A stretch of 64,000 nt of DNA. It comes from Nanobdellati archaeon. GTDB taxonomy: Archaea; EX4484-52; GLR71. The translations under genes and the position numbers were made by a program. The notes below the pieces were generated by a model. It ran no database searches. It was not told the origin of the DNA and saw nothing but the letters and a program-made list of their open reading frames with translations. The stretch is taken from positions 7,961 to 71,960 of the forward strand of contig JAHYJR010000003.1 in NCBI GenBank assembly GCA_019429005.1, in the 5' to 3' direction. Shown here one piece after another: positions 7,728 through 56,344 of this stretch (positions within the stretch are counted from its first letter, which is position 1; every line of letters starts with the position of its first letter).

Positions 7728-7731
7728 ATAT

Positions 7732-19700: not shown

Positions 19701-22700
19701 TATTTACAGGATATCCTTCAAGATCTAAAAGTGCAGGATTTGTAACATTTGCATCATTAACATAACAGCTTATATTCAATTCACTACGTTCATATGTTTT
19801 TGAAACATTTAAAACAGGCTCTACAATTGTAACATCGGAATAACCCCAAACACTAATTTCAAGATCATCATAATCTGAAACATAATATTGCTGTGTACCA
19901 TTAGCTCTTAATGTATAATTCTTTATCTCAAAGAAATCCGGATTAATGTTCCAAACATCACTAAGTCCATCACCAGATATATTAAGAGTGCCAACCGATG
20001 GCTCCGGAACCAAAGACCAATTCACAACAGACGGTGATGCAATAAGAAGATCGTCACCACATTGATCCTCAACACTTACAAAAAGATTCACAGTATCATC
20101 ACGATGTACAATTCTTGTAACACTAGCATCTACATAAGGTCCATCAGATGCTTTGAAAAATACATTAAGACTTCCATTAAGTGTTGTAACTATTTGAGAC
20201 GTTTCATAACCAGACCTTGGTGTATAAAACAAAGATGGTGTCTCATAAATTTTTACAATTACATCATTTGGACCAATATTATTATAATCATTATTTGTAC
20301 AATCTGTATCCCATGTATAATAACAGAAACTGGAACCCATTGTTTCATTTATAAGAATTGGGGTCACTGATTCAGTTATATTAAATTCACAATCAAAACC
20401 ACTTATAAACTTAGTATTATTGTAATAGTTATACACTTGTACACCATACAAAATCGAACTACTATCTAAAGGATAAATTGAATTGTTTTGACCAGGATAA
20501 AATTCAACTACAGAATAACCCCAAACTTCTACAGGTATCTCCTTTGAAACAAGATAATCATCATTATCAATACTTGGACTACCCAAAGAATCATAATATT
20601 CTTTAAGCATATCAACTTTGAATATAGACTCACCCAATGTCTGATTATAAGGAACTGTCACATTGGTTGCATCATAAGTATTTCCATTCTCAAGAAGCGT
20701 TGAATTTACATACCATTTAGTATCATTAAGAACATATAACACATCACCATTTTCAGATAAAATTGACGTGTTAAACATATAACTATCATTTTGATATAAT
20801 CTTAAATTTATAGATGGTTGGGTTATTGTGAAATTAAACCTACCTCGTGTTTCAACTTTCTCATATTTTGTATCATAATCAAACAATGGTTTTGTTACAA
20901 TAACTATTACAGAATAATTAAATGGTTCAATAGTATCTGACGGATTCCATATAACAGAAACTGGACACACACCAGATTCATTTGTGATACATGAATCAAT
21001 ATATATCTGTGAATTTGAACTTGTGTTATAATAATATGTCACATTTGTACCGTTAATTGGCCAATCTTCATCTGTAACATTAGCAAAAAGTACCGTCTGA
21101 CTTGGTGTAAATGTATCATTTCGATAGATCTTATTATCTGAAATATTATAACTTACATTAAGCACACCAAGTATTACTATATCCTGAATCATTTCAAAAT
21201 CAATTGTTGTATTATAATAGACATCAGTATAATCTGAAATATTACACTTTATTGTGTATATACCACCTGGTACATACCTAGCATCAAATACCGCAGATGT
21301 TACACCGCTAAGAGATGTATTGTCGGAGGCGATAAAATAATCGGTATAATTGAAAGTGTACCAGAACTCAACTGGATATGTAACATTTACAGGATCTGTC
21401 ATATTAGCATCTTTAACATCACAAGTTATGTTGATTAAAGATTTCTCAAACTGCTGCGGATTTTCTAGAGGGTATTTAGGATTTGTAATGTTTGACAGAT
21501 TTACAAAAGACCAACCCCAAACCTCAACAGGTTTAAAATCATACGACATATTATAATTGACAAGCTGTGTTGTCACATTCAAATCAAACTGCCCTAATTT
21601 ATGGTCATTTGGTATCAAATAGGTTCCATTTTCAGAATTATTAATAACACTATCAAAACCAGTCCGCTCAAGATTCCACTGAACTTGAGATCCTACCACA
21701 GTATCCATACATTCATCAACAATAATTGTTTCAAGGAACATTGTTTCAGTCTTAAAGAACGCTGTCATATTTGGCTGGACAATCGTTATGTTAAGAGGTG
21801 CTGTCAAATTAAGGTTAGTATTATTTGTACTATTACCTAAATCCGTAGTATAATACATATATGTCTCATTTGGTATCACAATAGATGCAATATGATTTCC
21901 AATAGTATCTGAATCACTTGATATGTCAACAACAGGACACATAGTATTCCATGTGATGTTACAGAAACCACTTTCATTTGTAAATGTTATATTATTCATA
22001 CCATTAAATGTCCAGTTACATGTGTAATTGTATATACCAGTAATATTATCTGCATCATAAACTCTTGCAATATATGTTATGTTTAAACCTCTTGCAAACT
22101 TTTCTGTAGGAAGAGGTGCAATAAATTCAACTGCAGATTTACCCCAAATACCAATTGAGACAGAATCATGGATATTCTCATGTGTTGGATTAGAAGTTAT
22201 ATCAAAATAATATGAATCCTTAAATGCATAGACTTCAACATCCTGTAAATTGGTTAAATTATTCCAGACATTCCAAGTTGTATTTTGACTGTTACCAATG
22301 ACATTTGCCATATCACCATTAAGATACCATAATATACTTGTGACAAACGATTCATCAACAACAGTCCCATTATCAAGGACCATTGTCATATTAAGTGACA
22401 CAGGGTCACCTTTATAATAAGAACTAGCAGGTAATGGACTTATGATTGTCGCATTTATTTTACCTAAAACTCTTGATGTGACATTTTTAGTGATGGAATT
22501 ATAATAATTCACACCCCTTGTCGCATTATAATATAATGTATATGAACTCGGATTAATTGTATTATCCGGATCCCATCCAAATATAACTTTTCCGTCAACA
22601 GCAGTCAAACCAGATTGGACAACACCAGGAGCCCCAGGAGTATACAACCATATTGTTGCATCTTTTATTGGCATTTGATTCTCATCGCTCACATTACATG

Positions 22701-25700
22701 AATACGAGATACTGTCACCCATCCGATAAACCCAATCTTTACTTACCGTCTGATTAACACAATCAACAAAAAGAAAACCTTTTAGATTTATAGTTGTTTC
22801 TGCTTCAGTTTTAAATGCTGTATAATTAATAAGAGGATAATCTGAGATGTTACATGTTACAATATGATCTCCTGTTGGAATCGTACTTATATTCCATTCA
22901 TAATATGCAATACCAACTGATGTCTGTGTAGTATTGATAAGAGTCACAAATGTTCCAGATACATTCGTAAAATTATCCCAGAATTTAACCTGATAACCAT
23001 TCAAAAGTGCATTAGTATCACGATCTGTGACATTACAAGTTAAATTTACAATAGAACTCCGATCATATTTTGTTATGTTACCTTCAAAAGGATTTATAAA
23101 AGATACATCTGAACGACCAAATATTTGCACATCACCAATAGAAGTAAAATTATTACCATAATAACTATGTGACACATTTGCAAAAAGTGTAAAATTGCCT
23201 AAATCATGACTCTGTTTTATATACCATGAATCAGTACCATTACCAGTATCATTCACAACCTCAAAAAAGGACGGTCTCTCTAAAGTCCAATTAATAGCAA
23301 CATCACCTAAATGTGTATTATCTGGTATATAATAACCACATTCATCTGTTATATTTGCTATAAGACTTACTGTATCATTCTTATGTAACGGATACATAGA
23401 CGAATTAGGTATAAGTATATCTATTTTTGATATATTTCCTCTTAAATCATTTGTAAAAGATCTATAATTTGCAGTCACGGTATCAACCGCATAAAATAAT
23501 GTAGCATTATCATATATTGTTGCATTTAAATCATGTCCACCAACCCAAGTAGAACAATCTGTAGTCCAATTATAATAACAGATACCATTATTTACAGACA
23601 CTGAAGATGTTCCACCAACATCATCACGAGCCCAGATACAGTTATAATCAACATCAATTTGTGGCGAATCATATTTGTTATGTACCCTTACAGCAAATTG
23701 AACAACATCACCACGTTCATCTGTAGTTGAAACAGATGAATTATATTCAATAAGTAAACGGCCCCAAACTTCAATTGAATTATTATATATTGTAACAGAA
23801 TCATTTGTATCTATACTATCATAAAATTCTTTTTCAACACGTATCTTTAATATATGATTACCAAGAACGTGATATGGCATAGTTAAACTTGAATTCAAAA
23901 AGGTTGTATTTGTAATATGAGTTTCACTTAAGTCAGTTCCATTAACAATTAACCATTCAGTATTATCTGTCAAATTTATATATTCGCCATTTTCCGTGAT
24001 AAATGTCATATTAAGATCTGATGTTTCGTTACGGAATATTCTGTATGTTGGATATGTGATATTCAATTTAATCTTTCCACGAACTTCAATAGTATTATTT
24101 TTCTGGACTGGTTGATATTGTGGTAAATTTGTTGCATTATAAGATATTATATAATCTGACGGTGATATGTCGTCTGGAACATCCATAATAACCGCACAAT
24201 TACCCGTCTCATTTGACAAACAATTATCTATAAAGATATTATCAGTACCATTATAATATGAAAAACTTACAAACGAATTATTCAAAAATAAACCAAGCTC
24301 ATCTATAACAACCACATAAAGTTCTGTAAAATTAGGATAAAAAGAATCATTTCTATATATATGACTTTCAGATTTAAAGAGCGTTATAAACGTATAACCT
24401 CTTAAATCTAGCATTGCTTTATTAGATTCTACTTGATATGCTGTATAATATTGTGTTGAATTATCTGTTATGTTACATGTCACATTATGTGGTGATGCTG
24501 AAGATTCACTTGCATTCCATAAAAATGTTGCATAACCAGAACTATTTGTAAAGTTAGTTCCAATTGTAGACGTATCTGTACCATTATTATCAATAAATGT
24601 CACAAAATAATTTTCTAATCCTGATGAATTACTCACATCATCTACATAACATATTAAATTAATTGTATCATTCCTAAAATAAATTTCACTAAGTGGAGAT
24701 ATGAAAGTTATATTCGACCAGCCCCATATTGAAACATCAACAGATGTCCAATTAGTGGTATAATATGTCCGCCCTGAAGTCACATGGATTGTAAAGTTAC
24801 CAAGAGCATGACTTATATCAATATATTTTGTAGTATTATACTCTCCAGATACACCAACACTTGAATAATTCCACCACTCTACATATGTGCTACCATCCCA
24901 TAATGTTACATTAACACCAACATCATCTATCTGGCGTCCACATTCAAATACCTGTACAGATACTGGAACAATTGTATCTTTCTGTAAAGGCATATCAATC
25001 ATTGCATTTGGAGATATAATGTATGAATCAATATCACCTCGTACTTCTAAACTAGTATTACTTGTATTCAAAGAAATGTCCTGTAATGGATTATAAAATA
25101 ATGATAATTCTTCACCAATCAAAACTGTTACATTTTGTATTGTCGCATTATCAGCACAATCTGTAGACCATGTATAATGACAATAACCAGTTGCATTTGT
25201 CTTATTGACAAACACATCTCCCTCACTTGTCTGCCATGTACAATTATAATCAGCAATTCCTGTGTCATTATAATAATCATAAACAAATGCAGTAAATAAA
25301 GCATCAGTACCACGAATAACAAGAGTAGGTGCAACAGTTATATTTACAACAGAACGTCCAAATATAACAACAGATTTATTTTTTGATGCAGTATCTAGAT
25401 ATGTTGGCATCTCATCATAATACTCTTTTGTAGTATTAACATAGATATAATGATTACCTAATGAATGATTAGACACATCAAAAAGTTTCAGACTGGTATC
25501 ATTTACAATAACTGAAATATTAGTATATTCCGATGTTGCATTATTAAATATCCACCAATTCATATAAAGTGGACTTTCAGATGCTGAAAATTGTGTTCCA
25601 TTCTCAAAAGACAAAATGGAACGGAAATAATGTGTTTCATCCTTATATACCCTATTATTGTATTTCTCAGTACCTGAATAATCATCTAATGGATAAAATA

Positions 25701-28700
25701 TATTATCAATATGATACATACCCCTAATCTGTACTGTAGTATTTTCAATTAAAGAATTATTGAAAAAAGGATGACTTCCATTATAGAATATATAATAATC
25801 ATCAGGAGTCATAGTATCAGATGCATTCCAAATAATATTACATTTACCTGTAGCATCTGTTGTACAATTCGCAAAATAAATCATTGAAAGACTATCATTA
25901 TCATCAGAATATTGGAAACTTATATTTGCACTCATTATATTTGCATCATTCTCATCAAAAGCTCTTACAGTAATATTTGCAAAATACGGATTAAATGTGT
26001 CATTCCTATAAAATACAGAATTAATCAAAGACGTAATATTTATATAAAGGTCTCCAATAAGCGTTATATCTACTACAGATTCATTCATCTCAGTCTCATT
26101 ATAAAAAAGAGTCGCATTATCTGTAATATTACATTTTAATCTGTGGTCACCAACTATAGACATAGAAGTATTCCATATATATATCGCATTCCCGTAAGCA
26201 TCAGTTAAATTAGAGTAAATTGTATCAATAGGCGCATAAGTTAGACCATTATCAATTGAATCCCAGAAATATACTGGATAATTTGTAATATTTTCAGAAG
26301 AATGATTATCCTTAACATTACAGCTTATATTCAATTCTGTCCTTTGATATGAATCAGATAAAGGTAAAACTAAATTAATTTTAGACCATCCATATATTAA
26401 CACGTTTTGAGTGTCATTACCTGATACATAATAAGTCTTATTTACTGTTGCATTGACATTGAACAAACCAATCTTATGATAACTTGGACTTGAAAGATCC
26501 CAATATGTAAGAGTCGTTCCTGCACCATCAATAATTTCAACATTACTTGTAATATTTGTACTTGTCCAATTGACTGTAGTCCCTAAAATAATCTGACTGC
26601 ATTCATCACGAACAGTCGAATTTAACGTAACATAATCATATCTATATACAATTTCTTTTGGTACTCCTGATACTTCCGGCTTATCCATTGTAATATTTAA
26701 TGTACCATTAAGTGCAACTGTAGTATTATCAGATTCATAACCTCCTGCTTTAGGTGAATAATAAAGTGTTGAATTTGTATAGATTGTCACATTAAGATCA
26801 TGCATACCTACAACATAACTGCAACCAGAATCCCATGTATAATTACAAAGACCAAGATTATTTGTTGTTGAATTAAACTGATCACCTTCATCATTTCTCC
26901 AATTACAAACATAATCTGATACATTATCAGAAGCATCATAATAATTATATACTCTTGCAATAAATGTTACATTATCAGTTCTTAATATTGAGGTATCGCT
27001 CTGACTAATTATTTCAACAACAGCTCTACCATAAACATCAACAGATTTATTTATAGACGTAACTGGAACATCATATGTATTGATATCATCATAATATGAT
27101 TTAATAACAGATACATTTAACCAATAAGAACCTATATTTTGTGCATTATCAATTGTTGCAGTATCTGTTATATTTGAAGTGTTCAAAATCAAGGTTACAC
27201 CAGAACCTGTTTGATTTATAATTGTCCAATTCAGATATAGGCCGCTTGTCAGTTCATCTCCATTTTCACTTGTAATTGTACCATTAAACCAATAATTTTC
27301 TCCACGATACAATATATCTTCAGAAGATAGACTAACCTTATATTTACCCCTAACTTCAACAGTCAAATTATGGTAGATTGAATTTTCATAAAATGTTTTG
27401 TATGCATAATATGTAATATTATACAAACCAGGAACATATGTATCTGACGGATTCCAAGCTGGTGTCATAACACAACCCCCTGTAGTGTTTGTTAAACATG
27501 TTCCAACAACATCGCCCGTATAATTAAGGAAAGTTACAGTAACAAGATTAACAGGATTATTATTATCATCAAGAACATTAGCTACAAAAGTTGTGTTATA
27601 ATTAACAAAAGAATCATTACGATAAATCCATAATAATTCAGGATATGCTGAAACACTCAAAAATCCACTCATATTAATAGACTTAGATGAGACATTCCAA
27701 ACATCTGTAGCATGGTAATATAATGTGTCATTATCTAAAATTTTACACCTTAATGTATATTCACCAGGATTAATTTCAGTCGTATTCCAACTATACATTG
27801 CAATACCATTTACGGTATAATTTGTTCCAAGCACATTTTCAACAGTCCCATTATCTTCTGTAAATTGGACAGGATAAAGATTAGAAACAACATCTGTAGT
27901 ATTCTGATCTGTAACATTACATTTTATTAAAAGAGTTTCATTTCTATTATGTACATCATAAGCAGGTTCAACAAGAGTTACATTTGACCATCCATAAACA
28001 AATACATTCCTAGCTTCTATATCAAAAACATAATATGTCTTTTCTGCTAGAGCTTCAATCATTATAGGACCCAATTGATAATCATTCAATATTTCCCATA
28101 ATGTACCACTTCCACTCTGATCTGAAGTGACAGATGGCGTCCAAACCCATGTCAAAGTCACATCATCTGTAATATTACCATCACTTTCATTTACAGTATA
28201 AGATTGTAATGATTCATTACTACCCCTATGGAATATTTGAGTCTCATACACATTTGTTATATTTGTCTCTAAATTACCCCAAATACCCAATATATAAGTT
28301 TCAGTTAAAGAATCCGACCATGATGTCTTTGTAGCATTAATATATACAGTATAATTATTTGGTAAAATATCTTCAGTCGCATTATACTTGATATAACAGT
28401 CACCAGACAAATCTGTAATACAATCACAAACTTTATTTGTTGAATTGATTTCATTTACATTACCATCTATGTCAGTACAATTTCCAGATGGAAGATATAT
28501 ATGAACTACAGCATTTAAAACTGGCACACCTGAATCAGAAGTAACAACCTTTGAACTAATTTGTACTTCATGTGGACTATAACTATCATTTCTTACAATA
28601 GGATCCTGATCAAATATGATATTTGTAACATTAAGACCTGTTACCGCCATTGTAGTTGAATTTTGCTCATAAAGATATGATGCATTATAATATAATAAAA

Positions 28701-31700
28701 CTGAATCTGTGATATTACATTTGACTTCATGCTCACCACCACCTACACTTGTAGTATCCCATTGCCACATAGCATACTCAGATAAATTCGCTTTTTCTAC
28801 AGATTGTAATACATCATCAAGATAAAAAGAGACATCATAAAGTGGATCAATATTAACTTGAGAATTTATTGCAGTATCGTTGAACTGTATCAAACAAGAA
28901 ACATTAACAATAGAACCTGGAACAAATTCACTTGCAGGATTAAAACTTATATTTTTTATTTCAGTATAACGGTATATGTCAATATATGTTATATTCTGTA
29001 CTTGATTTGGATAAAATGCATTTACAGGATCTGACACTTTTATAGTTACAGGCAGTGTTTGATAATCATACCAGAATACAGAATATACAGTATCTTCAAC
29101 AGTTTTAATATCAGCTGAAATATACCATTTTATACTATGACTATTTGAAGGGAAACCGCAACTATCTTTAACTGTAGAAAATAAATTTATATCATCATCT
29201 TTATGATATATTGAATTATTTAGAGGCGAATCAATAATTATTGTAAGATTATCAATTAAGCTTATATTCTCAACATCATTATCATCAAAAATATCCCAGA
29301 ATTCACTACCTGTTGCTGTAAGTGATAAATTAGTCTCATAATTTCCAAGAATATGCGTACAATCTGAATTCCATGTCATATTACACGTACCATTTATATC
29401 TGTAAGACTTGATGTTATAGTTGAATTTATAATCCAACTACAATTAAATCCAGATAATGGATAACCTGTTACAGAAACACCGCCAGCATCAACTAAACCA
29501 CCTTCAATCAATGAAGGAAGACCTCTATAATAAATATTGCCTTCAGAAGTCATATTTATTATAAGAAGACCTTTAATTTTTAATGGAATATAATCTGTGC
29601 TTGAATCATTAAAGTATTGTCTTGTCGCATTAAAATAAATTGAATAATTCGCAGGATAAATATCGTCTGCAGGATTCCAGCTAATATTACATAATCCATC
29701 AACACTCATACAATTTCCAAGATAATATAAGGTCGAATTTTCAGTTGAATTATAATAAAAAGATACATTTGCACCAGAAACAAGATTATCGCTAAACACA
29801 TCAGTAACATTTGCTTCAAAAATAGTCTCATTAGGTACACCACTATTATATCTGTATACCACAGATTCAGATGATGTCACATTAACATTAAGAAGACCTG
29901 TAAGAGTTATGTTATAAGATGTTTCTGGTATTGACACATTATAATATACTGTTGCGTTATCTGTAATATTGCATGTAATTATATAAGTGCCAACATTATG
30001 ACTTGTTGTATCCCATGTAAATGTGCTATTTCCTGAACTATCTGTAAGTGTTGAACCTAAATAAACTGTTGTTCCGCTACTGTTTGTCTCCCAGAACATA
30101 ACCGGATAATCTTGAATATTCTCACTTGAATTAAGATCGCTGACATGACAGATTACATCAATATTAGATCTTGTCTTTGTCGAATTATATGGTGCTGTCT
30201 GATTAATTCCAGACCAACCATATATCCAAATATTTTTAACAGATGAATTTGTTGCATAAAATGTCTTGTTTCCTGTCGCATTAACACTATTTGCACCAAG
30301 CACAAAAAGATTGTCAAGAGCCCAGGATGCATTAATACTTGTATTAATCATAGCATTTGTTATATTAAACCAATTCAAAGTCACATCAGAATCATCAAAT
30401 ATAACACCATTTTCATCTGTAACTGTAGAATTTAATGATACTGTTTCAGTCCTATGATAAATATCCCAAGGATTTACAGGTGAATCAATTGTTATATAGA
30501 TTCTTCCAATCACTGTAAAATTATAAGGATCTGTTTTTGTATAAACACCAATTGTATCTTTTGCTTCAATTTTATAATACCATACACCTGGAAGTTCTGT
30601 AACATTGATGCTTACATTCCAAGTATAATTACCAGCTCCATCTGTTGTTGTATATGGATACTCGTGTAAATAAACATTACCTAAATCATCAGCTTCTTTA
30701 ACAAATAATTTAGGCCAACCAGCTTCAATACTACCTCCAAGACCAATACCATCATCATATACTGTAGCATAAATGGTTTGATTACTTCCTCTAAATATTG
30801 GATCCAATTCAACAGAAACATTCTCAATAACAGGCGGTTCTTGATCTTCACAAGCTGTCATACAACGATAACGTCCAACATAAGAATCAAAGAAAATCGG
30901 ACATGACCAAAACTCTTGAGCATCTGTAATACCTGTAGATAATAAAGTATCATTAACTTCAACTGTAATATCATACCGTCCACTATTTCGTGGTAATGAA
31001 CTAATATTTATTTCACCAGAACATACAGCTTTACCTGCAACTGGTACTGAAAGTGCGATTGTACTTGTAAGTTGCGATACGCCCGTTGAGATATTATTAA
31101 ATTTAACTAAACACCCTGTAGGACTTGCTGAGAATGTACTTACAGATGATGTGAAATTGACATTAATTGTGATATTCTCATCATCATCATACCTTACTCT
31201 TCCAGGATATTCTAAATCGGTTATATTATAGAATCCTTGAAGAATAGGTGGGATTAAAACATCAAATACCATAGAAGTCTCATTTATATTATATGCACCA
31301 TCAACAGACCGAACACTAAGATTATATGACCCTACACTAAGTCCAGTAAATGTAAATTCACAATCACGCACATCAACAGTACTATAAGTATACCATCCAG
31401 TCGTATTCAATTTAAATTCACAATGATGTATACCTGAATTATATAAAACATTATCTGAGGTATTCACTTTAACTGTAACATCTGGCCCATATAAAGCCCC
31501 AGATTCGGCCATTCTTGATACAAATGAAATATTATTTATTATTGGTTTGTTATTTTCAAGAACATAAACTGAAATAAACATTTCTTCAGCCCCATCAATA
31601 TTTCCAGCAATCTTAAATGTATAAAAACTATTATCAACAATAGCATCTGTAATTGGAAGCTCTATATTATATGTAAGATCAAGCGCTTGAGTTGATGGAT

Positions 31701-34700
31701 AACTTGTAGATTCGGCAAAGAATATTCCTGTTGAAATTCCTTTTGTAAATTCAGATGCACTTGGACCTGTAAGCACAGATTTTACAGAATTAGCACCGTT
31801 AACATTAAAATCTGCAGGTAAAGGTGATGCAGCAATACCAACCGAAAAACTTACACTACTAACCATTTCAGTCTTATTTGTAAATCTTATTGTCCAGTTT
31901 TCACCACGCCTTACAACATAATCATAATCAATATACACTTTAGATGCTGTTGACTCCCACTTGAATATGACATCATTTGTCTGACAATGGATTGTTAAAT
32001 CACAATCATTTGTCGCATCAGAACAATCCGCATCAGTTCCTGGTGATTCTGGAGTATCATCATTATCAACATTATCAACACACATATTTGGTCCATATTC
32101 ATCAGAAGGACAAGATGGTGTTCCAGCACAAGCATCATCAAGACAATCTATAAAACCATTATCATCATTATCAACACCATCATCACAAGATAACTCAATA
32201 TTAAATTCACAGACTTTACCATCTGGACCAGCAAAGCCATTACATTCAGATTCTTTACAATCTTTTAAATCAACATCAAAAGTCCTATCAAAATCATTAT
32301 CAATACCATCTGAACATGCATCAACAGATACATTTTCAAATTCCGGACAAACATTACAAAGACCAAATTGTTTATGGCAGTTTGGATCCTCACAATCCGT
32401 ACCATTTTTACCAACTTCATAAATACTATCTGCATCTGGATCATTACCATCATTATCGCCACCATCACGACAATATTCAGGATATTCATTAAATGCACAT
32501 ACAACACCCTGTGGACCCATAGAACCAATACAATCACTATCAGCACAATCAAAATAATAATCAAGATCATTATCTGTTGTGTCATTACATACACTTTCAA
32601 ACAAAGTATATGGATTATTAGAACAGATATAACTTCCATTTAAATATGTCGCACCAGCACAATCATAATCATCACAATCTGCCGCATCAAGACCACCATA
32701 ATTTGCAGTATAATTAGGTTTATTACGTGTCAAATTAGCTAAATCAAAATCATTATCATAACCATCTGTACAATTCAATTCAGTACCAATCTCACAACGG
32801 AACACAGAACCTGTAACATTTACATAAGATAAATGACAATCAGAATCATAATCATTTGCAATCCAATTACAATCTATACCGGCACCAACTGTTACATTTT
32901 TAATTGTACCATTTGTATTATAAGCATCTAAATCATTATCTATGAAATCATAACAAGTATTTGCCCCACTTGAAGCACAAGCGAAATCACAAGACTCAGT
33001 CACAGGACATGAACCTAAACCCCTACAATTATAATCATCACAATCTGAACCATTCAAATTAGAATATCCTGCAAAATGAATATTTGCAACACCCCAATCC
33101 TGATCATTATCAAAACCATCTGTACAATTCATTTCCCAAAGAAGCTGACAATCACCAAATGGTATTGGACTATGACTATCATTTATTGCCGTCATATTAC
33201 AATCAGCATCATAATTATTATATCGACAATCAATACCAGCACCAATTGACATGTTTCTCACACCACTACTGTATGAACTTCCCGGTTGCATTTGGAAATA
33301 ATCCATATCATTATCAATATTATCTGTACAGTTCTCACCAATTTCTTGTGATGGCACGATTCCTAAAGTTCTACATTCAACTTGACAATCATATTCTGCA
33401 TTTCCTGTACCTTGTAAAAAACCATAAACAGGATCTGTAAATCTGTCAGCTGTTGCAACAAGATCACAATCTTTAAGCTGATACTGATCATTATTGAAAC
33501 CATCTGTACAATTCAATTCTTGACGATATTCACACAGATGTAATGTGTCTGTATAATTACCTTGTCTCATATCACAGTTAATATCTTGACAATCTGCACC
33601 TGATACATTAAAATAATCATTATCAACAAGATCATAACATGTAGTCTCTGCAGGCTGACATAAACCTTGTCCATAATCAGATGAATTTGAAAGACTTATA
33701 TCAGAAAAACCACGATAATCTACACAATCTGCACCGCTGCATCCGGGATCCCAACAATCAGGATCAGCACAATCAACTAAATAATCAAGATCATTATCTT
33801 CTTGATATTGATTTAATGCCGTACGATCACGACAACCATCTGTTATATTATGTTCATAAAGCATACCTGTTGCTGTAGTCCCAATCTCAATTGTAAGATT
33901 TATCTGATTTGTAAGATCTATTTGAAGGTCTCTAGAAACTGCAATCGTATGAATTCCGATAAGACCCGTTTCATTAGGTATTATTATATTCATAGTCATA
34001 TCAAGATTACCGCAATAAGAAACATTATCTGTAGCTACTAAAAATGTAACTTCTGAAGTTCCTAATTCAATCACATAAGGGGTAAAACTAGATGATTCTG
34101 AAAGATTATTAATAAACACATTACTTCCACCAGGAAGAACAAGACCAGACGGTAATGGTTGAGTTCCAACACCAAGCATAAATTGAACCGTCCTATTATC
34201 ACTAGAACCACAATTTCCAACAGGTCCAACAAAACGAACTGTAAGATTACCACCCAAAGCAACATTTTCAGTATAATATACTTTAGTATCTTGTATACCA
34301 TCAATTGTCGCTTGACATACACCACCAGAACATGTCGGTGTAAGTGATAATAATCCAAAGACCATATCCATAAAACCAAAACTTACAAATTGTCCACCAT
34401 CTTTAGTACGATCACCATTAGAACCAGGCGGACAACTATAAACAATACCCGCACAATCAGCATCATCACAATCAAGACCATCTGTAGGATAATACAGACC
34501 ATTCAGATAATCTTTTTCTAAAAGTGATGCATCATTACATTCAAATTCAGTATAAGTTCCTGAATATTTCTTAAAAGCAAAATCGTAATCATTCTTAAGA
34601 CATGATTCTTCCATAAAATATTTATATGGAATATCACCTGTACACTTAAAAGCGTTAGAAATCTCATCCCAAGTTGACCAATCATTATTCAGATGTAATG

Positions 34701-37700
34701 TTGCATTTCGCAGTCTTCCATCACTTGAATTTATAAATATTGTATAACCTCCATCAGAACGCGTATTTGTTGCATCATCTGAAATAGTATAAGTCAAATA
34801 ATAGATACCGCCACCAGCATCATAATATGACTCATTATGACTTGGTCCATAATCAGAATCAATTAATGAAAAATTTGCAAAAAGATCAAGTCCTGGAACA
34901 CCAGCATCAAGTGTTAGATTGATTGTTGTCCCATCCTCATAAAACACCCTATTTTTTTCAACACCAACATCAATACTAAAGAAAACTGTAGAATTACCAA
35001 CATTACTTTCAGAATCATTAACATAGACAGTAACTGTATGTTGACCAACATCATAAATTGCAGTCATATTTGTTACATTGCAATCAGGTATTGTGATATT
35101 TGCTGCACCATCAAGAGAATATCCACACCAATCAACATACTCATTTACTGAAAAATTAAGAAGCACTAATGGTGTTGTATATGTAGCATTTATCGGTGAA
35201 TGTATAGTTATTATAGGCGGATTATTATCTGTAAAATTAATATATCTCTTACTTGGTGAAAAAGACACATTATAATTCAAAGTTTTATTCTCCAAAATAG
35301 TACAAGTAATATTATGGCTACCAAGATTTACAAAATAAGAGTTCCATGTATAATTAACATAACCAGAAGAATTTGTAAATAATGTTGCAATCAATGTATC
35401 AACAGTTCCATTATTATCACTGATATTGACCTGATAACCAGAAATACCAGTTGTAGTATTATCATCATAAACCATACAAGTTATATTTATTATATCTCTA
35501 GGTAATACATCATCAACATCTGGTGCAGGTGATATCTCTGTAACATTAACAGCAACCCAACCATATATTTCAACATAACGTTCAAGTACAATTGGTACAA
35601 AACCCGTCTTATTAACATAAATACTTATTGTCTCATTAAAAGGTACAGTTCCAACAGGTATACTCCAAGTTGAATTTATAATTGAACCAATTGTAACATT
35701 CAAACTATTTTTCCATGTAACATTTACTTCAGAATCTAATAACGGAACACCTGCATCCGTCGTTACTGAAGAATTCAAATAATGTGAAAGACCTTTATAA
35801 CGTATATCTCCATCACTTACAGGATTAATAATGTTTGCAAATATAGAACCCTTAATATCAAGAGATGCAGTTACAGTTTGAGAACTAATCCAAAGTGGTC
35901 TTGATGCATTCACATAAAAATCATATAATTTAGGGAAAATTGTATCATTAGCATTAAAATCAATAGAACAATAACCAACTGAATCAGTTGTACAATTACA
36001 ATGATCAACAGTCTCATTTATATATTGCCCATTACCACAAGAACCGGTTGGACCATATATACTTACAATAGCACCTTCAACAAAAACAGAATAACCCTCT
36101 TCATCTGTAGTATTAACATATATATCTATATAGGTTTGATACGGTATGATATCAGTACGATAAATCCATGGAGAACCAATTTCTAATTTAGATATATTTA
36201 ATTGGGTTGCAACAACACCAATTGTAGAATTTGATCCAGATGAAACATTATAATAATATGGTGCTTGACGAGTATTATTAATTAAACAAGAAACATTATG
36301 CCAACCACCATAATATCCTGTAGTATCCCAAGACCATATTGCAAAAGATGTTAAATTTGAAATATTAGTATACTCATAAGTATTATCAACATAAAAATCA
36401 ACATTATAACCACTAGGAACAATCACACTTTGATTCAAATCTGTAACTTCACAATAAACACCGATGACATCATTTCTTGTAACTTCTGATGGATTAATTA
36501 ACATTCCACCAACATTTGAAAAACGATATAACATCAACTGTGTCATATTAGTGAAAAGTCCAGGATAATAGGTACCATTAACATTTGCAGTTATATTGAT
36601 AGGACCTCTTCCGGAAATATCTGCAACCCAACTATAATTCGCATATGAACTACCAAAATCAACTATTACGCCATTATTAGAAAAATTATCTGCATATATC
36701 CAAGATACTTGATAATCATTAGTTACATCAAATGAACATACAGATTCAATTATAGTTGAATTTAACCAATAATTATAATTATAATAAATTTCAGAATTTT
36801 GATTTGGACTATCTATAAATACCGTCAGATTATCTATAACAGTAATATTACCCATAACATTATCATCAAAAATATCCCAGTATTTATAATATGTCTGATT
36901 CATATATGAAATATTCACAAGATATGAACCTACACCAATAGAACATCCATCAGACCATGTATAATTACAAACACTATCTGTCCCCGTTAACGTTGTACCA
37001 GTTGAATCAAATGGAGATATTTCCCAAGAACAATTATAATCTGAAAGACCATACGCTGATACTGATAAATTAGCCTCATCATAAAGCTCAGCAAAAACAT
37101 TAATATCGCCATCACGATAATATCCCATATCTTCAGAAGTCAAATTAAGATGAAGAATACCTTTAACTTCAACACTACCATATTCAATCTGTAATATATA
37201 AAACAATTTTGTTGCATCATATTGTATTGAAATATTTCCAACTGAAGTATATATTGAAGGATTCCACAAGAAACTACAAGTACCCGTATTATCAGTTGTA
37301 CAATTTCCAAGATATTCTGAATCAGCTGTATTTGTAAAAACAACCGTTGTCTCATTAAGTATTTGTGATCGATTATCTGTAGCATTGACATTAAAAGTTA
37401 CATTATACGGATAACCTTTTGAGATTGCATACGCATCATCACGATAAATCAGATTATTATCCATTGAAATATTAATCAAAATTATTGTTGTAACAATAAT
37501 ACCCTGTTCACTATCATCAGTTTCATTAATACAGCCAAAATCTGCGGGATAATCTACATAACCATCATCATCATCATCAAAACCATTATTACATTCTGGA
37601 GACCATTCACGCGTATCATTTGCATCATCACAACCCCATGTATCATTTATGAAATCCGCAACACCGTTACCATCATCATCAAAACCATTATTACATTCAG

Positions 37701-40700
37701 GAGACCATTCCCAAATATCATCTGCGGATGAACAACCATAAAAATCCTCAGGCCAATCTATAAGACCATTACCATCATTATCAATACCATCATTACATTG
37801 AGCGATAGCTTCACTTTCATGAAATGGATCATAAGAAGATATATTTGATGCATTAAAATCAGTATGACATTCCGGATCATCAATATCAGAAAAGGTATCA
37901 AAATCATTATCCCATGTATCATTACATTGCGGTGTCCCTGAACCAAAAGTGCCACCTTCATCATTATCATATTGATCTGTACAATCGGGATCAGCTGGAA
38001 GACCACTATTATTATTATTGTCCTGCCAATCCATAGTTCCATCATTATCATTATCAATACCATCATTACATTGCGGAGTCACACCACCAGGGCCTGAACC
38101 ATCACCACCACCGCCACCAGTACCAGAAGTTGAATTACCTGCACCACCCCATACTAAAAGATAAACCTCTGGAAAATCAAAAATCTGACACTGAATTACA
38201 TTTTCAGTTCCACCTACAGGAGACCATAACCATGTTGCAATACCTGCTGAATTTGTAACACTTACTCCAAGCACAATCCCATTATTCAAAAAAGTTACAT
38301 TGTATCCACTAATATGCTCATTATTAATATAATCAAAAACATTACAGCTCAAAGTATAAGTAACATCTTCATATACATATTGAGGTAGTGATGTCGCACT
38401 AACACTTGCCCAACTCCACACAGTTATATTATAATATGTTTTAGAACTATTATATAATGGTCCTGCAGCCTCAACAGACCATGTCACATTACCCCTAGTC
38501 TGATAAGATGAACAATAACTACCAACACAACCCGTATTTCTATATTTTACATCAGATGAAAACATAGAATAATTACAATAACCATTAGAATCTGAAAGCA
38601 CCTCTCGTGCAGGACCTTCAATTGATAAATTATTATCAGAACTCATATTAGTTAAAAGTACTCTATAACGACAAGTCGCATTTTCAGGATATGTCTCTGT
38701 ATAATTATCATAGATTCTAACAGATAACATAGAAGATATATCATTTCTAAATATTTCGGAAGGTGCATCTAAATATGTAATCTCAGAATCATGAGATAAT
38801 ATTCTTGGATACCATTCATTTGACGGATTAGTAATTGTATCATTTATCAAAACAAGATCATCATCAGTAAGATGCAAACCATCTGAACCAAACCAATCAT
38901 GGAACCCATTACCGCCATCCGAATCATTTGTACCAGTAACATTATAATCAATATATGTCAGATTAAATGATATTGATTTTTCTTCACATAAATTATAATT
39001 ATGCTTAGAATCACATGATGTACCAATCCAACTCTTATTTACAGACACATTAAAAGTCACATAATCTATAACTGATGAATCAATTGTGATACTCTGTGAT
39101 AAATAATTTCTGATACTAAATGTCAAGTTTACATAATCATTCTCATAATCAGTAATATTATAAGAAACACTAAAATTCATTACACTATCATTCCAATAAA
39201 ATTCAGATGGACTGACCGTAGTTGCTGTAATAACAGGTGGATAATTATATCGACCGCCAATAGCATAAGTTACATTTTGATTTAATAAAATATCACCTGT
39301 AGCATTCCCGGTTCTAGGTTGTACAACCTTAACAAAATCAATTACACCATTTCCATTCGTATCTTCTGAACAGATAAACCATGTGTTCAAATAATCAATA
39401 TCCGACCAAGTACCACATGTTCTTATAGATGATTTAGCACCACAACAAGAACCAGTAGGATTTTCCCAATAATCAATAAGATACACACAATTTGATTTGA
39501 TATTACCTTTTTCAGGACCTTCAAGGCAAAGATAATCATTTACATCATGATCTACAACACCATACCTAGGCCCACTACTCCAACAATCAGTATAAACACT
39601 ATCTGTACAACCCCATATACACGCACCCTCACCAATTGAATACGCATTATCTGAACAAATATCACTCACAGTATTATAACGACCAACAGATTCATTTATT
39701 ACTTGATAATTATAATATGTAGTAGTACTACTAGGATTGCAAAATTTTTGTGTATAAAACGATTTCTGTGGTATAAATGATGGATTAGAACATCCTATCT
39801 GATTAAAAAGTGTGAGATCTAAACCTTTAACTCCTGAAGGTTGATCCGTATATAAACCAATATTAGTTGTATTTAAATAATAGGTCGCAGGATTCCCTAC
39901 ATTATCCCAATTAAGTAATTTTATATAAGGTTGATCAATAATATTGATTGTATCGTTATCATCAATACTTGTCGTAAACATTAAATTATAAAATACTTGA
40001 GTTTCTGTACTTCCATTTGGATTTCTAAATATAGTCACATTCTTTTCAGCAAATTCTCTATATTTAACATAATCTGTATCATTTGACCATGCAACAACCT
40101 CAACAGGCATAGAATTATCCCAGAAATAGAACTGTGAATAATTCCATAAATCCGTAACATTCACACCAGAACTTTTTACAGTAAAGTCTTCAATATCACA
40201 TTTTTCTTGAGAATTAAGATAAAAATCTTTATTAATACTACAATTTACTGCACCAGATCCCATCTGAATATCATATACATTCACATCAAAAAGAACACGA
40301 CTTAAATTTTCAAAAGTAATATTCAATGCTTTTGCAGGATATTTCTGATTGACTCTTATTAAATCAAGATATACAGGAACACCTTCAATAACAATAGTAT
40401 TCTTTGCAATCGAATCATTCAAAGAAATATTTCTACTAAAACTACCATTCCATAACCAATAAGCTTCCATATTCGACTGTGCGGCTTCTGATATGTTATA
40501 AGTATAATTAAAAGTAGTATCCTCAATAACAATACTTCCTTTCTTATCTCCCGAATAATTCGCAAACCAAGAATATATAATATTACAGGTTTCATTAATA
40601 GGACACTCTGATATTGATGCAGTTGATAAACGATTACTTATTGAAGATGTTGTATTATATTCAAGTACATCATATCTAAGTCGACCATCATAAGACCATT

Positions 40701-43700
40701 CATCAACACCGTCGGCTTCAACATCCATTCTTGGTTGAAAAGGGAAATTATTAAAATTATATATATATATTTTTTTATTTGAATCAGATGACAAAATAAT
40801 CTCATTACCTGATTCTATAAGATGATCTATTACAAGCATATTATAAAAGATTTGACCATTAAGAGACTCCTCTCGAACATATAATAAATTCCCATCACTA
40901 TCCAATTCATAAATTATATTTTCCACAAGATATATGATTTCTTCATCATCAGGTGTAAATGAATCCACTTCAGATATTGATACAGATATAACATTATCAT
41001 TAGTATGCACATTATTAATATCTGAATAATTAGTCCATATAAGATCACATGTTGAATTAAAAAGACTTAAATTTTCACTTGTACCTATTATTATTTCAAG
41101 TCCATCCAATGAATGTATCAAATCACCAATATCAAAAGATAAAATCGAACTAGAAACAGTACAAGTTTCAATTTCAGAACCATCAGTATAATTTAAGATA
41201 CGAAGAACAGAACCTGTTGAAAGTATAATATTTTCATAAGTATCATTATTAATATCATCAACTTTTATATCAGTCACTTTACTAGTAAATTGTTTCCCCC
41301 AAATTCTTTCAGCAGATGAATTAACCAATTGAAGTTCTTCGCCATCACCAGGTTCATGTCCAAAAATAATACTAGGGCCATAATCTGTAAAATTATAATA
41401 AAATACACTCGAACCTGCATCAGTACCAGGAGGATCATAATAAAAATTCCTACAAGGTATTATAGGATCATAAGGACCTAGATTAACAATACAAGTCATA
41501 TTATACCCATCAACACCCTTATTTGAATCTCCTGAATTAATCACAATTAATTCCATATTATCATCAGTTAAATTAATATTACCTAATTTAAAATCAATAG
41601 GCTCTAAAGCACCGGGATCAATCTTAAATATTGGCACATTACCAACTGTTGATTCCGAATTAAATGCCCTAATATCTACAAGTGTACTTACAAAAAAATC
41701 ATAAAGTGTTGAAGATGCATTAACTTTACCACCAACCAACATCTTTGTCCAAAATAAACCATCACCACCATTACTAATTATCTTAGGTGCCATCTCTCCA
41801 CTCAAAGAAACACTTGAATTGATAATAACAACATTTGTAGGTATTGTCACATTAACATCTTTATATATCGCTTCATTATCATAAGCAACAACATACGAAT
41901 TCTTCACTTGCGTAAAATTAAACCCAAATGTATACGGATCCAGAGCATATGAAAACTGAGTAACCTCACTATCACCTAAAGCCCATGCAAGATTCTTTGC
42001 ATAAGCAGTCATATTACCATAGGTAAACCCAACAAGATGCTTTCCAGACATGAGCTCATAATAAAGAACTTTACCGTGTTTATAATCCCATGAGATTGAT
42101 AAATTTTCACCGTCAAAAGTGGGATTAAGAACAACCCATTCTTCAGAAGCATTATCATAATAATAAAGTCCAGCAAATTCAATCCCTTCAGGATTATAAT
42201 TATCTATATAAAGTATGTCAGATCCCGTCGTATCAAAATATATTGTCCAATTACTTCCAACAAGCGGATATGACTGAATATTTAAAACAGTTATTGTAGA
42301 TTCAATAACAAAATCCTGTGATGATAACTGTGGCACATTCCAAAACATCTTATCAATAAGACCATTTTCATTTGTATCGACAAAAGTCACATTAAATATT
42401 GAATTTTCAGTAACATCAATTTTCTGACCATCCTTGAACCAATAAAGACTTATTTTGTTACCACGAACTTCAGATATATCCGAAAATGCTTGAACATCAT
42501 GATAATGCATAGAAACACTACTTGCAATAGTCACATTTTTTGTCCATCCAGACTGATAAGATTCAACATCACTTTCAAGAGAATATGGTGCATCTGTTTT
42601 ATATTCAATCTCAATAGCCTCAAATTCATCTGTAATAATTGATGCAACCATGCTCTGGATTTTTACAACCTTATCACGAGTCTCTGATGTAACTATAGCT
42701 TCACTAGGTACAAGATCATCAGATGAAATATTTTTTGATTTTCGCACCTTTCCTTTTAGTGTCCAACTAACAGGTTCACCAATAACAGCATTATTTTGAA
42801 TAATATCAAGATCTTGAACATCAGGCGGAATTATTTGTATTATTGTTGAAGAACCCAAACTTGATAAGGTATTCAAAGATTCGTTCCCAGCATAAAATGT
42901 TTTTATCGTATAAAGACCAGGACTTAAAGGTGATGTATTCCAAGATAATGTTGCAACACCAGACAAATTTGTATTGTTTATACCAAGAAGATGACTATCA
43001 ACATAAAACTCTAATTTTTGGCTAGGTATTGGTGTTCCATTCTCAAATGACAAGTTTGCCATTATTTTTGAAATTTCACCTTGAATTACTTTAACAGGAT
43101 CAAGAATAACATCAGTTATCTGTGTAACAATAGGTGCAATATGTTCATTTGAAATTATAGTAACCATTATTTTTTCAAAATAAGCAGATAATGTATCAAT
43201 TGCCTCATTACCATAATATGATAGATTAAAGAAATGTTCACCTTCATCTAAAAGAGATGCATCAACCGAAATCAATATTGTACCATTATCATCTGTAGCA
43301 TTCAGACCAATAAGAGTACCATTAGTATAAGCATACATTTCTTGATTAGGTATTGGTGTGTTGTTATCATACACTAATCTTGCTTTGATAAAAGCAAAAC
43401 CATCTCTAAAAACAACTCCAGGTGTAATAATAACATCAATAATACGAGATATAAATGATTTTATTTCAATCTCAACAACATCTGTAACATTTGTGCTATT
43501 ATCCATCCCATCAATAGAAATAGACCCATTTGTAGTTTCATTCAGATTATTTGTGATATTAACAAAAATTGTATCATTTACAATCAAAGTCCCATTAATA
43601 ATCATTGTATCATTAATCTGAATAGTACCATTAATAAGAATTGTATCATTGACTGAATCATCATCTGATGTCAAATTATCAGAAACATTAATAGATAAAT

Positions 43701-44115: not shown

Positions 44116-44141
44116 CAAATTAACCGGATTTTTTAGTGTAA

Positions 44142-45281: not shown

Positions 45282-46328
45282 TTATTTAACAGATTGTGCT
45301 GAAATAGGCATATTTTCAACCACATACACATCATCAAACTTTACAAATAAAAGATATACAAATGACAAAATGCCTGTAAAAAACATCGCAATACGGAAAA
45401 AGAAAAACATTGTAAATGCAACCATCAAAGGATAAATAAACTTAATAATATCAAAAAGATTTGAAAGCATCTGTAAATTATTATCTACGCTGCTAGAAAC
45501 ATCTAAATCATCAAACGTGGAATCAATTAAATCAAACTGTGCATCGATATTAGCTTTGACATCCTTATCAATATAAACCATACTGCTATTCAGCGCAGAA
45601 AAACATTTCTGACGTTCCAAAGGCGTAAGTCCATAAGATTCATCAAAAACAGAGTACAATAAAGCCTGCTCAAGACCCTCAAGCATCGCATAATTTGCAT
45701 TTTTCTGAGACTCAATGGCTACACTCTGAATATCACCCAAATCATCTTCAGACATATTAAGTGTTGAGGTAAGCATAGAATCAATTTCATTTGATGCCAA
45801 AAGCGGATTATTAAAAACATATATTAAAAGAGCAAATGTAAAAATCAATGAAAACACAGAAAATGCCTTTGATAAAGCCACCCCTGCAAGTTTCTTATAT
45901 GGCGGTTTTTTATAAATATCAGAAATTTTTGCACCTTTAAAAACTATAAAAAATGAAATAAATACACTTAAACTTGCAACAATATTAAAAAACGTAAATC
46001 CACCAAAAAATAATGTGAAAATAGATAATAACAAAGGTGTTATAAGTATAGAATAATCGGATTTTAAATCAGCTATAACAATCTTAAAAAATATAATAAA
46101 AGGTATGGGCACAGTCAAAAGAAACATTATAAAATAACTGAAATTCATACCAAATGAAAAATCACCAGCAGACATTGCTGTAGAAATATTTGCACTAGGC
46201 GAGATAATCAAATCAAGATTAAAATGTGATAAGTATAAGAAAATAAAAGATAATATAAATGTAAAAACAACAAGCATAAGACCTTTATTTTTATCCATAA
46301 TGACAACCATTTTAATATTATTTATCAT
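45282..46328 (-). CDS. Polytopic membrane protein of unknown function. Its start overlaps the stop of the upstream IPT-repeat surface protein by 4 nt.
   Basis: At least 6 hydrophobic helices. 4-nt start/stop overlap with the 2,110-aa gene (translational coupling). Confidence 0.6.
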   Translation of the reverse strand: MINNIKMVVIMDKNKGLMLVVFTFILSFIFLYLSHFNLDLIISPSANISTAMSAGDFSFGMNFSYFIMFLLTVPIPFIIFFKIVIADLKSDYSILITPLLLSIFTLFFGGFTFFNIVASLSVFISFFIVFKGAKISDIYKKPPYKKLAGVALSKAFSVFSLIFTFALLIYVFNNPLLASNEIDSMLTSTLNMSEDDLGDIQSVAIESQKNANYAMLEGLEQALLYSVFDESYGLTPLERQKCFSALNSSMVYIDKDVKANIDAQFDLIDSTFDDLDVSSSVDNNLQMLSNLFDIIKFIYPLMVAFTMFFFFRIAMFFTGILSFVYLLFVKFDDVYVVENMPISAQSVK

Positions 46329-53510: not shown

Positions 53511-53652
53511 ATAAATTATAGCTTACAAGGTATAAAAATCTATCTTAAAGAACAAAAAATAATCTTTAACTTATAGAAAAAAACATTTGTCAAAATCAAA
53601 TAAAAAGTATCCAAAAAATAGACTAAAACAGTTTAGAACCCCTTACTAAAAC

Positions 53653-53762
53653 AGCTAAAAACAGATACAAAAACGACTAAAAACATATACAAAAACGACT
53701 AAAAACATATACAAAAACGACTAAAAACATATACAAAAACGACTAAAAACATATACAAAAGC
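53653..53762. repeat. 5 x 22-bp tandem direct repeat (gactaaaaacatatacaaaaac) with phased A5 tracts, between the S-layer gene 3' end and the minD start
   Basis: Units at 53675-53696, 53697-53718, 53719-53740 and 53741-53762, plus a degenerate copy at 53653-53674. A-tracts recur every 10-12 bp. Confidence 0.9.
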
Positions 53763-53780
53763 ACATTAAAAACTAAGATA

Positions 53781-56280: not shown

Positions 56281-56344
56281 TCTGCATATTTATAACCTCT
56301 TTACTTATTTGCATAAAAAGCAAATTACTCGTGCAATCAAAATC

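Follow-up and report, generated by a model that had tools for sequence, protein, structure and literature searches.

We analysed a stretch of 64,000 nucleotides (hereafter the window) from contig JAHYJR010000003.1 of a Nanobdellati archaeon (assembly GCA_019429005.1), in which one open reading frame (ORF) of 12,128 amino acids (aa) contains two clusters of Cys/Asp-rich repeats. A model that saw only the letters and the translated ORFs (the sequence-only reading) had reported at least nine repeat copies at 32000-33800 and a second cluster of five at 37490-38080, both placed within a giant ectodomain. Both clusters were recovered at nearly the same coordinates, i.e., 11 full cores and one degenerate unit at 31984-33813 (cluster 1) and six cores at 37498-38079 (cluster 2). 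The two strings it had quoted were found as well (NCTDGFDNDQD...DCDDYNC at aa 3664-3699 and CDDGVDNDDNGFIDCLDDAC at aa 3978-3997). The host gene and its repeat features are:

7732..44118, minus strand: host gene, 12,128-aa ORF that contains both repeat clusters
37498..38079, minus strand: cluster 2 (aa 2014-2207), six two-Cys units
37498..37806, minus strand: three head-to-tail 34-aa units of cluster 2 (aa 2105-2207)
34432..34542, minus strand: isolated degenerate unit (aa 3193-3229), ECNDASLLEKDY...DGLDCDDADCAGIVYSC, from the profile search
31984..33813, minus strand: cluster 1 (aa 3436-4045), 11 full-core units and one degenerate unit
aa 3436-3462, minus strand: the degenerate cluster-1 unit, without the first Cys, from the profile search
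33007..33345, minus strand: super-repeat 1 (aa 3592-3704), a type B unit followed by a type A unit, the latter with a 14-residue insertion
32623..32970, minus strand: super-repeat 2 (aa 3717-3832), same B+A order, with 14- and 18-residue insertions
32497..32598, minus strand: second canonical four-Cys unit (aa 3841-3874), ESVCNDTTDNDLDYYFDCADSDCIGSMGPQGVVC, 26.0 bits
32107..32196, minus strand: canonical four-Cys unit (aa 3975-4004), ELSCDDGVDNDDNGFIDCLDDACAGTPSCP

The core C-x-[DN]-x-x-[DN]-[ND]-D (regular expression C.[DN]..[DN][ND]D) has 17 matches, all in one frame of this ORF (11 at aa 3494-4018, 6 at aa 2017-2176), and no match in the other frames of the window. Composition-preserving shuffles of the whole protein averaged 0.11 matches and never exceeded 2, and shuffles inside the Cys/Asp-rich segments only gave 0.17 vs. 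11 and 0.08 vs. 6 observed matches, which rules out chance or low-complexity Asp/Asn-rich sequence as their source. Of the 610 residues of cluster 1, 52 are Cys, 126 Asp or Glu and 20 Lys or Arg; its DNA shows no tandem repeat.

Counted from the first Cys (C1 = 0), the units share the register E(-3), C1, D(+2), D(+5), N(+6), D(+7), D/N(+9), loop, D-C2-x-D/E-x-D/N-C3, 5-13 residues, C4. Position +7 is Asp in all 17 units and +5 in 16 of them; +2 is Asp in 15 and Asn in two, +6 is Asn in 15 and Asp in two, and +9 is D/N in 12/17. An Asp precedes C2 in 11/11 cluster-1 units, and C2+2 is D/E in 9/11. Within the eight type A cluster-1 units with a C2-x4-C3 box, C2+2 is always D/E, while C2+4 is D/N/E in seven and Ala in one. 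The Asp/Cys spacing is hence conserved among the copies, as the sequence-only reading had expected (+2, +5, +6 and +7 in 16-17/17), and the distance between the unit halves varies, with insertions of 0-20 residues. Units without extra residues between the halves start at aa 3537, 3844 and 3978; the remaining cluster-1 units carry 2-20 such residues. The full compact spacing C-x13-C-x4-C-x5-11-C is found in two units (aa 3844 and 3978), six further cluster-1 units have the C2-x4-C3 box and C4 with insertions of 2-18 residues, and the two type B units as well as units 3537 and 4013 depart from the compact four-Cys spacing. The isolated unit at aa 3193-3229 has lost the DND core and kept the C-terminal DC-x-D-x-D-C box.

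The repeats belong to a catalogued family. The curated whole-sequence cutoff of the NCBIfam hidden Markov model (HMM) NF033662 (acid_disulf_rpt, acidic double-disulfide repeat) is 41 bits, and both cluster 1 (46.2 bits, nine stretches) and cluster 2 (65.2 bits, five stretches) score above it; ORF residues 1-4100 reach 54.8 bits. The nine stretches of cluster 1 accord with the 'at least nine' copies of the sequence-only reading. Among relatives, the bacterial protein P0003, which has nine compact units, reaches 198.7 bits, a MYXO-CTERM protein 91.7, the two Woesearchaeota proteins 63.5 and 40.9, and a TARA fragment 53.4. At E ≤ 1, neither cluster has a Pfam match, and the whole ORF has no relevant one at E ≤ 0.01; membership in PF11617, TSP_3, dockerin, Ldl_recept_a and EF-hand is ruled out by the lack of a Pfam match to clusters (E ≤ 1) or whole ORF. 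The HMM check that the sequence-only reading had proposed, i.e., against the Pfam MopE and TIGR02232 models, gave no match at E ≤ 1. Here, TIGR02232 (myxo_disulf_rpt) was rejected given that the NCBIfam scan at E ≤ 1 returned NF033662 alone, the fitting family, which that reading had not named. No paper was found in the literature under the name 'acidic double-disulfide repeat'. We conclude that the clusters represent a diverged member of a repeat family that is already known and catalogued, elaborated by a super-repeat specific to the lineage.

When compared with the PDB, the window sequence alone has human teneurin-4's C-rich domain as its top match (7PLP, E=0.038). A profile of the window unit aa 3973-4009 (window 32092-32202) and 94 compact units from relatives matches 13 distinct PDB sequences, which are all teneurins, and the best of them is again 7PLP (E=1.7e-9). 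The AlphaFold2 model of aa 3973-4009, built from the same alignment without templates, has a predicted local distance difference test (pLDDT) value of 83.7. Foldseek vs. the PDB returns for this model teneurin C-rich domains only; for 7PLP, the root mean square deviation (rmsd) is 1.0 Å over 31 columns, with TM 0.76, probability 1.00 and 42% identity. That is, the teneurin C-rich fold is predicted for one canonical unit (aa 3973-4009) only. Unit aa 3975-4004 is the top match both to the family profile (32.3 bits) and to the teneurin C-rich domain, and unit aa 3841-3874 follows the teneurin consensus ExxCxDxxDxDxDxxxDCxxxDC as far as the first Cys of the 'CC' pair. The consensus published by Tucker et al. 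reads ExxCx(D/N)xxDx(D/E)xDxxxDCxxx(D/E)CC (PMC3278476).

The 1.5 Å structure 7PLP contains three fully coordinated Ca2+, bound via E835, D840, D843, N844, D845, D847, D851, D854 and D856, with further contacts from backbone carbonyls; the coordination at sites I and II is that of thrombospondin type-3 repeats, the one at site III that of low-density lipoprotein (LDL) receptor A modules, and the disulfides are 1-3, 2-5 and 4-6, which is also the pattern of the latter modules (PMC9058538). Removal of Ca2+ reduces the thermal stability of the teneurin-4 ectodomain, whose C-rich domain packs on the neighbouring domain and stabilises a conformation without binding a ligand (PMC9058538). The Ca2+ ligand residues of 7PLP are in register with the conserved Asp/Asn/Glu positions of the units here, and C1-C3 and C2-C4 correspond to teneurin C838-C857 and C852-C863. 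Real, repeated Cys/Asp modules of a metal-binding type in the extracellular part of the giant protein, as the sequence-only reading had proposed them, are supported. Its likening to thrombospondin type-3 Ca loops is borne out by two T3-like sites of 7PLP (PMC9058538), while Pfam TSP_3 is unmatched at E ≤ 1. The teneurin context (EGF, NHL, RHS/YD, Tox-GHH) has no match anywhere in the giant ORF.

Beside the compact units, cluster 1 contains a larger B+A super-repeat of about 120 residues with eight invariant Cys. In super-repeat 1, the type B unit reads C..DND.D...GAGIDC...DADC...C and the type A unit CTDGFDNDQD...DCDDYNC......C. The long loop of both type B units (aa 3597 and 3722) ends in G-A-G-I-D-C2, with 9-11 residues from there to D-x-D-C3. 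The same B+A super-repeat is present in TARA and GOS fragments and in both proteins from Woesearchaeota metagenome-assembled genomes (MAGs), where the Cys/Asp/Asn columns are invariant and the loops very different. A search with the super-repeat profile found 4 further metagenomic fragments only, with the B+A arrangement in 2/4. The super-repeat is a lineage-specific elaboration that is rare compared to the module itself.

The six units of cluster 2 follow the pattern C-N-[DN]-G-x-D-[ND]-D-G-N-G-x-x-D-[WFY]-x-x-D-x-x-G-C, with 10 Cys, 55 Asp+Glu and 1 Lys+Arg in 195 residues. The first three units are irregular; at the DNA level, the last three still show up as a tandem repeat of 102 bp (37561-37799, 2.3 copies, 76% matches). 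Cluster-2 relatives amount to 129 proteins at E ≤ 1e-3, which are short fragments; those with names are, among the matches listed, all bacterial (Myxococcota, 'Deltaproteobacteria', Bradymonadales, Kofleriaceae, Anaerolineae, CPR Peribacter, MYXO-CTERM proteins). From these relatives, 132 distinct units were collected, with consensus KPQCSDGIDNDGDGLIDYPADPGCSSATDDSEEP and a period of 34 aa, and the resulting bacterial profile matches the tandem units of aa 2105-2207 end to end with 38, 20 and 35 bits. The sequence-only label 'Myxococcus-type' therefore fits cluster 2 loosely, through its Myxococcota/MYXO-CTERM relatives, and fails with respect to the TIGR02232 model.

Aligning the four-Cys profile (A1) with the cluster-2 profile (A4) by hhalign gave 98% probability (E=2e-13), with C1 on C1, C3 on the last Cys and an aromatic residue at the C2 position. 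From this profile-profile match with C1 and C3 aligned, cluster 2 is read as a single-disulfide variant of the cluster-1 module. The first tandem unit contains DNDGNGLIDWPE (aa 2113-2124), which follows the pattern of an EF-hand-type 12-residue loop. An EF-hand was nevertheless rejected, since there is no Pfam EF-hand match and the unit is closed by a disulfide and not flanked by helices. It is plausible that cluster 2 binds Ca2+ via a DxDxDG-type loop, which is less well supported than binding by the compact cluster-1 units.

Concerning distribution, of 1.84 billion cluster representatives, 16,270 proteins match the A1 profile at E ≤ 1e-3, including 5,712 at E ≤ 1e-10 and 1,347 at E ≤ 1e-30, with up to 45 units per protein. 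The module family is large, mostly unannotated and not peculiar to this genome. Within species-representative genomes, relatives of cluster 1 were found only in two 'Candidatus Woesearchaeota' MAGs and one deltaproteobacterial MAG. At the protein level, the best relatives are fragments, whose sources are a TARA station (0.1-0.22 um fraction), GOS and a 'Nanoarchaeota archaeon'. From these relatives and the archaeal neighbouring genes, we take the organism to be a DPANN-type archaeon, probably Woesearchaeota-like. The sequence-only reading had called such repeats unusual in archaeal surface proteins; similar archaeal arrays are those of the two Woesearchaeota MAGs and one 'Nanoarchaeota archaeon' protein, and the other named relatives are all bacterial. 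In a 'Candidatus Woesearchaeota' MAG (JACJVV010000001.1, 4667-14839; L002), a 3390-aa protein has 11 cluster-1-type units at aa 1781-2319 and three two-Cys units near its C-terminus (aa 2915, 3023 and 3197). This window is therefore not alone in combining the two variants within a single protein.

The topology of the host protein is described by three further features:

43996-44073, minus strand: hydrophobic N-terminal signal anchor (aa 16-41)
8836-8907, minus strand: single C-terminal membrane segment (aa 11738-11761), next to a basic stretch
8653-8676, minus strand: Walker A motif GSTGSGKS of a cytoplasmic HerA/FtsK-like P-loop ATPase

Given the anchor, the single membrane segment and the basic stretch plus P-loop ATPase that follow it, both clusters are assigned to the predicted ectodomain, in line with the location proposed by the sequence-only reading. 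The numbers of Cys are even in both clusters (52 and 10), which is, along with the predicted extracellular location, consistent with disulfides.

We read the clusters as arrays of extracellular Ca2+-binding mini-domains that act as rigid spacers, in which the NF033662 family equals the teneurin C-rich module, and assign this reading a probability of roughly 70%. The mini-domains would be small and without regular secondary structure. In the canonical unit E-x-x-C1-x-D-x-x-D-N-D-x-D-x-x-x-D-C2-x-D-x-(D/N)-C3-x5-11-C4, acidic side chains would wrap up to three Ca2+, i.e., two sites of the thrombospondin type-3 kind and one of the LDL-receptor-A kind, and the C1-C3 and C2-C4 disulfides would close the knot, such that the fold would depend on Ca2+ and oxidised cysteines. 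Only two or three units have the compact spacing, the others hold the ligand positions with variable loops of 2-20 residues between the halves, and two unit pairs build the super-repeat. For cluster 2, the C1-C3 disulfide and the DxDxDG-type loop would remain, with the aromatic residue in place of C2. Placed in series, the units would give the stalk of this giant surface protein, from a DPANN-type (Woesearchaeota-like) archaeon, stiff and very acidic segments loaded with Ca2+. Such segments could act as rigid spacers and possibly, in the manner of a scaffold, display variable loops, which may add recognition surfaces. In a marine organism, which the closest relatives suggest this one to be, the Ca2+ sites would be occupied at all times. 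Established here are the family assignment, the conserved ligands and Cys and the predicted fold of one canonical unit; Ca2+ occupancy, disulfide pairing, rigidity and an adhesive role are what we infer.

Several observations weigh against the Ca2+-module reading. Its main weakness is that most cluster-1 units have insertions inside the putative Ca2+-binding loop, namely between ligand +9 and the Asp preceding C2, where teneurin provides a backbone ligand. A confident model was obtained for one unit only, and AlphaFold2 on the B+A super-repeat (8-row alignment) produced no confident fold (pLDDT 38.8); in the long-loop units, the fold and the full set of three sites are hence putative. Ligands are also incomplete: E-3 is present in 6/11 cluster-1 units only, +9 is F, Y or T in three units, several units are without single ligands, and unit aa 3537 has no C3 box. 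The 'CC' pair, i.e., the third teneurin disulfide, is missing from every unit, with at most four Cys in register. The cluster-2 profile misses teneurin in the PDB and yields only non-significant EF-hand/calmodulin loop matches (E ≥ 0.055). Finally, metal binding is argued wholly from homology, and the proposed disulfide pairing presupposes that this organism oxidises extracellular Cys.

The insertions could be taken to mean that the long-loop units are disulfide-knotted spacers which have largely lost metal binding and in which the loops are what matters. For this speak the 9/11 cluster-1 units that are off the compact form (2-20 residue insertions or an altered C2-C3 box), the lack of a confident AlphaFold model of the super-repeat, the low profile scores of the split halves (3-12 bits) and the relatives' loops, which vary in length and sequence next to invariant Cys and Asp. 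We nevertheless consider such a loss improbable, since the invariant super-repeat residues across organisms are exactly the Ca2+ ligand positions (D8, D11, N12, D13, D15, D39, D46, D76, D79, N80, D81, D83, D101 and D104 in A2/A3), which is unexpected if binding was lost. The lowest weight goes to MopE-type repeats that bind copper or another transition metal, i.e., to a cell-surface capture of Cu/Zn via the MopE motif, which seems very improbable to us. The core CxDGxDNDxDG does resemble the C-terminal half of PF11617 (Cu-binding_MopE), and the bacterial relative P0008, used as positive control, matches this family with 38.8 bits at a gathering score of 27 bits in the stretch CSDGIDNDCNGYIDC, where units read C-x-D-G-x-D-N-D-C; furthermore, PF11617 is carried by 7/120 listed cluster-2 relatives. 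PF11617 matches only relatives with such 'DNDC' units, however, and a Cys directly after DND occurs in 0/17 units here; the clusters stay below the gathering score, and neither they nor the whole protein match at E ≤ 1. No MopE structure is among the PDB matches at E ≤ 1, and the solved homologue binds Ca2+. The conserved columns are Cys, Asp and Asn only, without His, Met or Trp, whereas the MopE copper site consists of two His and a kynurenine (PMC3423442). The copper part of the sequence-only proposal is consequently not supported. Its 'MopE-like' label is right in a loose sense, given that Tucker et al. had already remarked that the teneurin Cys-rich core resembles the MopE motif and a diatom enzyme (PMC3278476) and that 'DNDC' relatives match PF11617; as a family assignment, it fails with the unmatched PF11617 model.

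Two further readings shift the function from stiffening to recognition. DPANN archaea are a group known to live attached to hosts, and the repeats are part of a giant surface protein of a DPANN-type archaeon. They might be Ca2+-dependent recognition modules (dockerin-like or LDL-A-like) that bind a host glycan, a host protein or a second subunit rather than passive stiffeners. The LDL-receptor-A type of the third teneurin Ca2+ site, the variable insertions on a conserved scaffold and related bacterial proteins that pair the repeat with lamin-tail, PA14/fibro-slime and MYXO-CTERM modules point in this direction. On the other hand, no partner is known, Pfam dockerin and Ldl_recept_a are unmatched, and the teneurin-4 domain packs on its neighbour and binds no ligand (PMC9058538), such that we judge this quite improbable. 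Somewhat broader is the idea of a Ca2+/disulfide knot used as display scaffold in marine Woesearchaeota-type archaea. Here, the invariant Cys/Asp skeleton of the B+A super-repeat, in a giant adhesin coupled to a cytoplasmic HerA/FtsK-like ATPase, would present three hypervariable loops (5-50 residues, depending on the relative) as host-recognition surfaces, combined with a possible prokaryotic origin of the teneurin C-rich domain. For that domain, an origin from a diatom or alga was proposed in 2012. Since more than 16,000 family members are found in a library of mostly prokaryotic genomes and metagenomes, it may instead have arisen in prokaryotes, as did the other parts of the teneurin ectodomain. 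As a whole, this scenario is speculative and in our view unlikely.

The finding by itself is unsurprising; giant surface proteins of prokaryotes commonly carry acidic repeats that bind Ca2+. What the Ca2+-module reading offers is a concrete biochemical description (about three Ca2+ and two disulfides per compact unit) that replaces the vague label 'metal-binding motif' and drops copper. It also connects an NCBIfam repeat family, curated yet unpublished, with a structure solved at 1.5 Å, and thousands of unannotated bacterial and archaeal surface proteins could receive the same annotation. In the giant protein, it points to two segments with a stiffness expected to vary with Ca2+ and redox state, a help in expressing fragments and in reading tomograms of cell-cell contacts.

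The remainder of the giant ORF has features of its own. Its C-terminus (window 7735-8907, aa 11738-12128) is a HerA/FtsK/VirB4-like P-loop ATPase (Pfam DUF87, 45.9 bits), for which the top NCBIfam match is 'DNA-translocating ATPase CedD' with 49.9 bits, far below the cutoff of 600. The same ATPase terminates the next ORF downstream (1393 aa, window 3558-7739, minus strand), and a 300-nt direct repeat of 75% identity is shared by both genes at their 3' ends (3594-3893 and 7765-8064). This paralogous ATPase 3' end is the sole long direct repeat in the window. A diversity-generating retroelement as source of the loop variability was ruled out for the window, which has no reverse transcriptase ORF and no long template/variable repeat pair. 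Just outside the membrane (window 9574-9759, aa 11454-11515), three units of a separate Cys-rich repeat CG[DN]xxCxxGExxxxCxxDC are located (CGDGSCTAGENGFNCAEDC, CGNSICEFGEEFTCFSDC, CGNYICDIGENENNCEIDC), which has no Pfam or NCBIfam match. Another Cys-rich stretch lies at window ~39350-39800 (aa ~1440-1590; 12 Cys in the bin aa 1401-1600); it has no family match and does not resemble the Asp-rich repeat. Mid ORF, at window ~13600-29400, diverged super-repeats with a period of ~1671 bp (557 aa) show as DNA repeat families of 60-80% identity, with only weak Ig-like, MG2 and transthyretin-like hints from Pfam. N-x-S/T sequons are very frequent in the giant ORF (671, or 5.5 per 100 residues) and somewhat less so in the clusters (3.3 and 3.7 per 100), as would suit an archaeal surface protein with heavy N-glycosylation.

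Short ORFs of 91-124 aa overlap the clusters in other frames or on the opposite strand (32265-32639 and 37758-38066, minus strand; 32368-32643 and 33084-33440, plus strand) and are probably by-products of the Asp/Asn/Cys codon bias and not genes; the GC skew is -0.33 in 32001-34000. Neighbouring genes are archaeal (NcsA-type tRNA thiolation protein, proteasome-activating nucleotidase, Kae1, ThiI, S-layer family protein), and G+C is about 31%. The S-layer-family gene (53840-56323) is flanked by two intergenic arrays of 22-bp tandem repeats (53625-53778 and 56750-56891; e.g., AAAAACGACTAAAAACATATAC, at least 5 copies). In the ORF of a 2110-aa TIG-domain surface protein (46325-52657, minus strand), a near-perfect 15-bp tandem repeat, ATGTGCAACAGCACC, is present in about 8 copies at 46505-46639, i.e., close to the 3' end of the gene, and would encode a short pentapeptide repeat. 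Rfam gave no match in the whole window at gathering thresholds.

Relative to known systems, the repeats share the acidic core of NF033662, and their compact units its four-Cys spacing. They differ from it in that most cluster-1 units are broken by loops of 2-20 residues, such that only profile halves align, and in that cluster 2 covers only profile positions 5-20 with two Cys instead of four. With PF11617, the units have the core C-x-D-G-x-D-N-D-x-D-G-x-x-D in common and differ by the Cys after DND, which is missing from all 17, and by the lack of a match at E ≤ 1. The 34-residue CxDGxDNDGDGxxDYPxDPGC repeats of Myxococcota/MYXO-CTERM proteins have no model of their own in the libraries searched and are detected only via the N-terminal half of NF033662; they agree with cluster-2 units 4-6 in the 34-aa period and the two Cys, whereas the first three units here are irregular. 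The likeness to thrombospondin type-3 repeats and LDL-receptor class A modules is one of Ca2+ coordination alone, with the TSP_3 and Ldl_recept_a models unmatched. The teneurin C-rich domain (teneurin-4 residues 834-871) shares the register E-x-x-C-x-D-x-x-D-N-D-x-D-x-x-x-D-C-x-D-x-D-C with the units described here. In teneurins, it has six Cys including the 'CC' pair and is present in one copy between the EGF repeats and the TTR domain ahead of the YD shell, while the archaeal protein carries four or two Cys per unit, 17-19 copies in arrays, and loop insertions.

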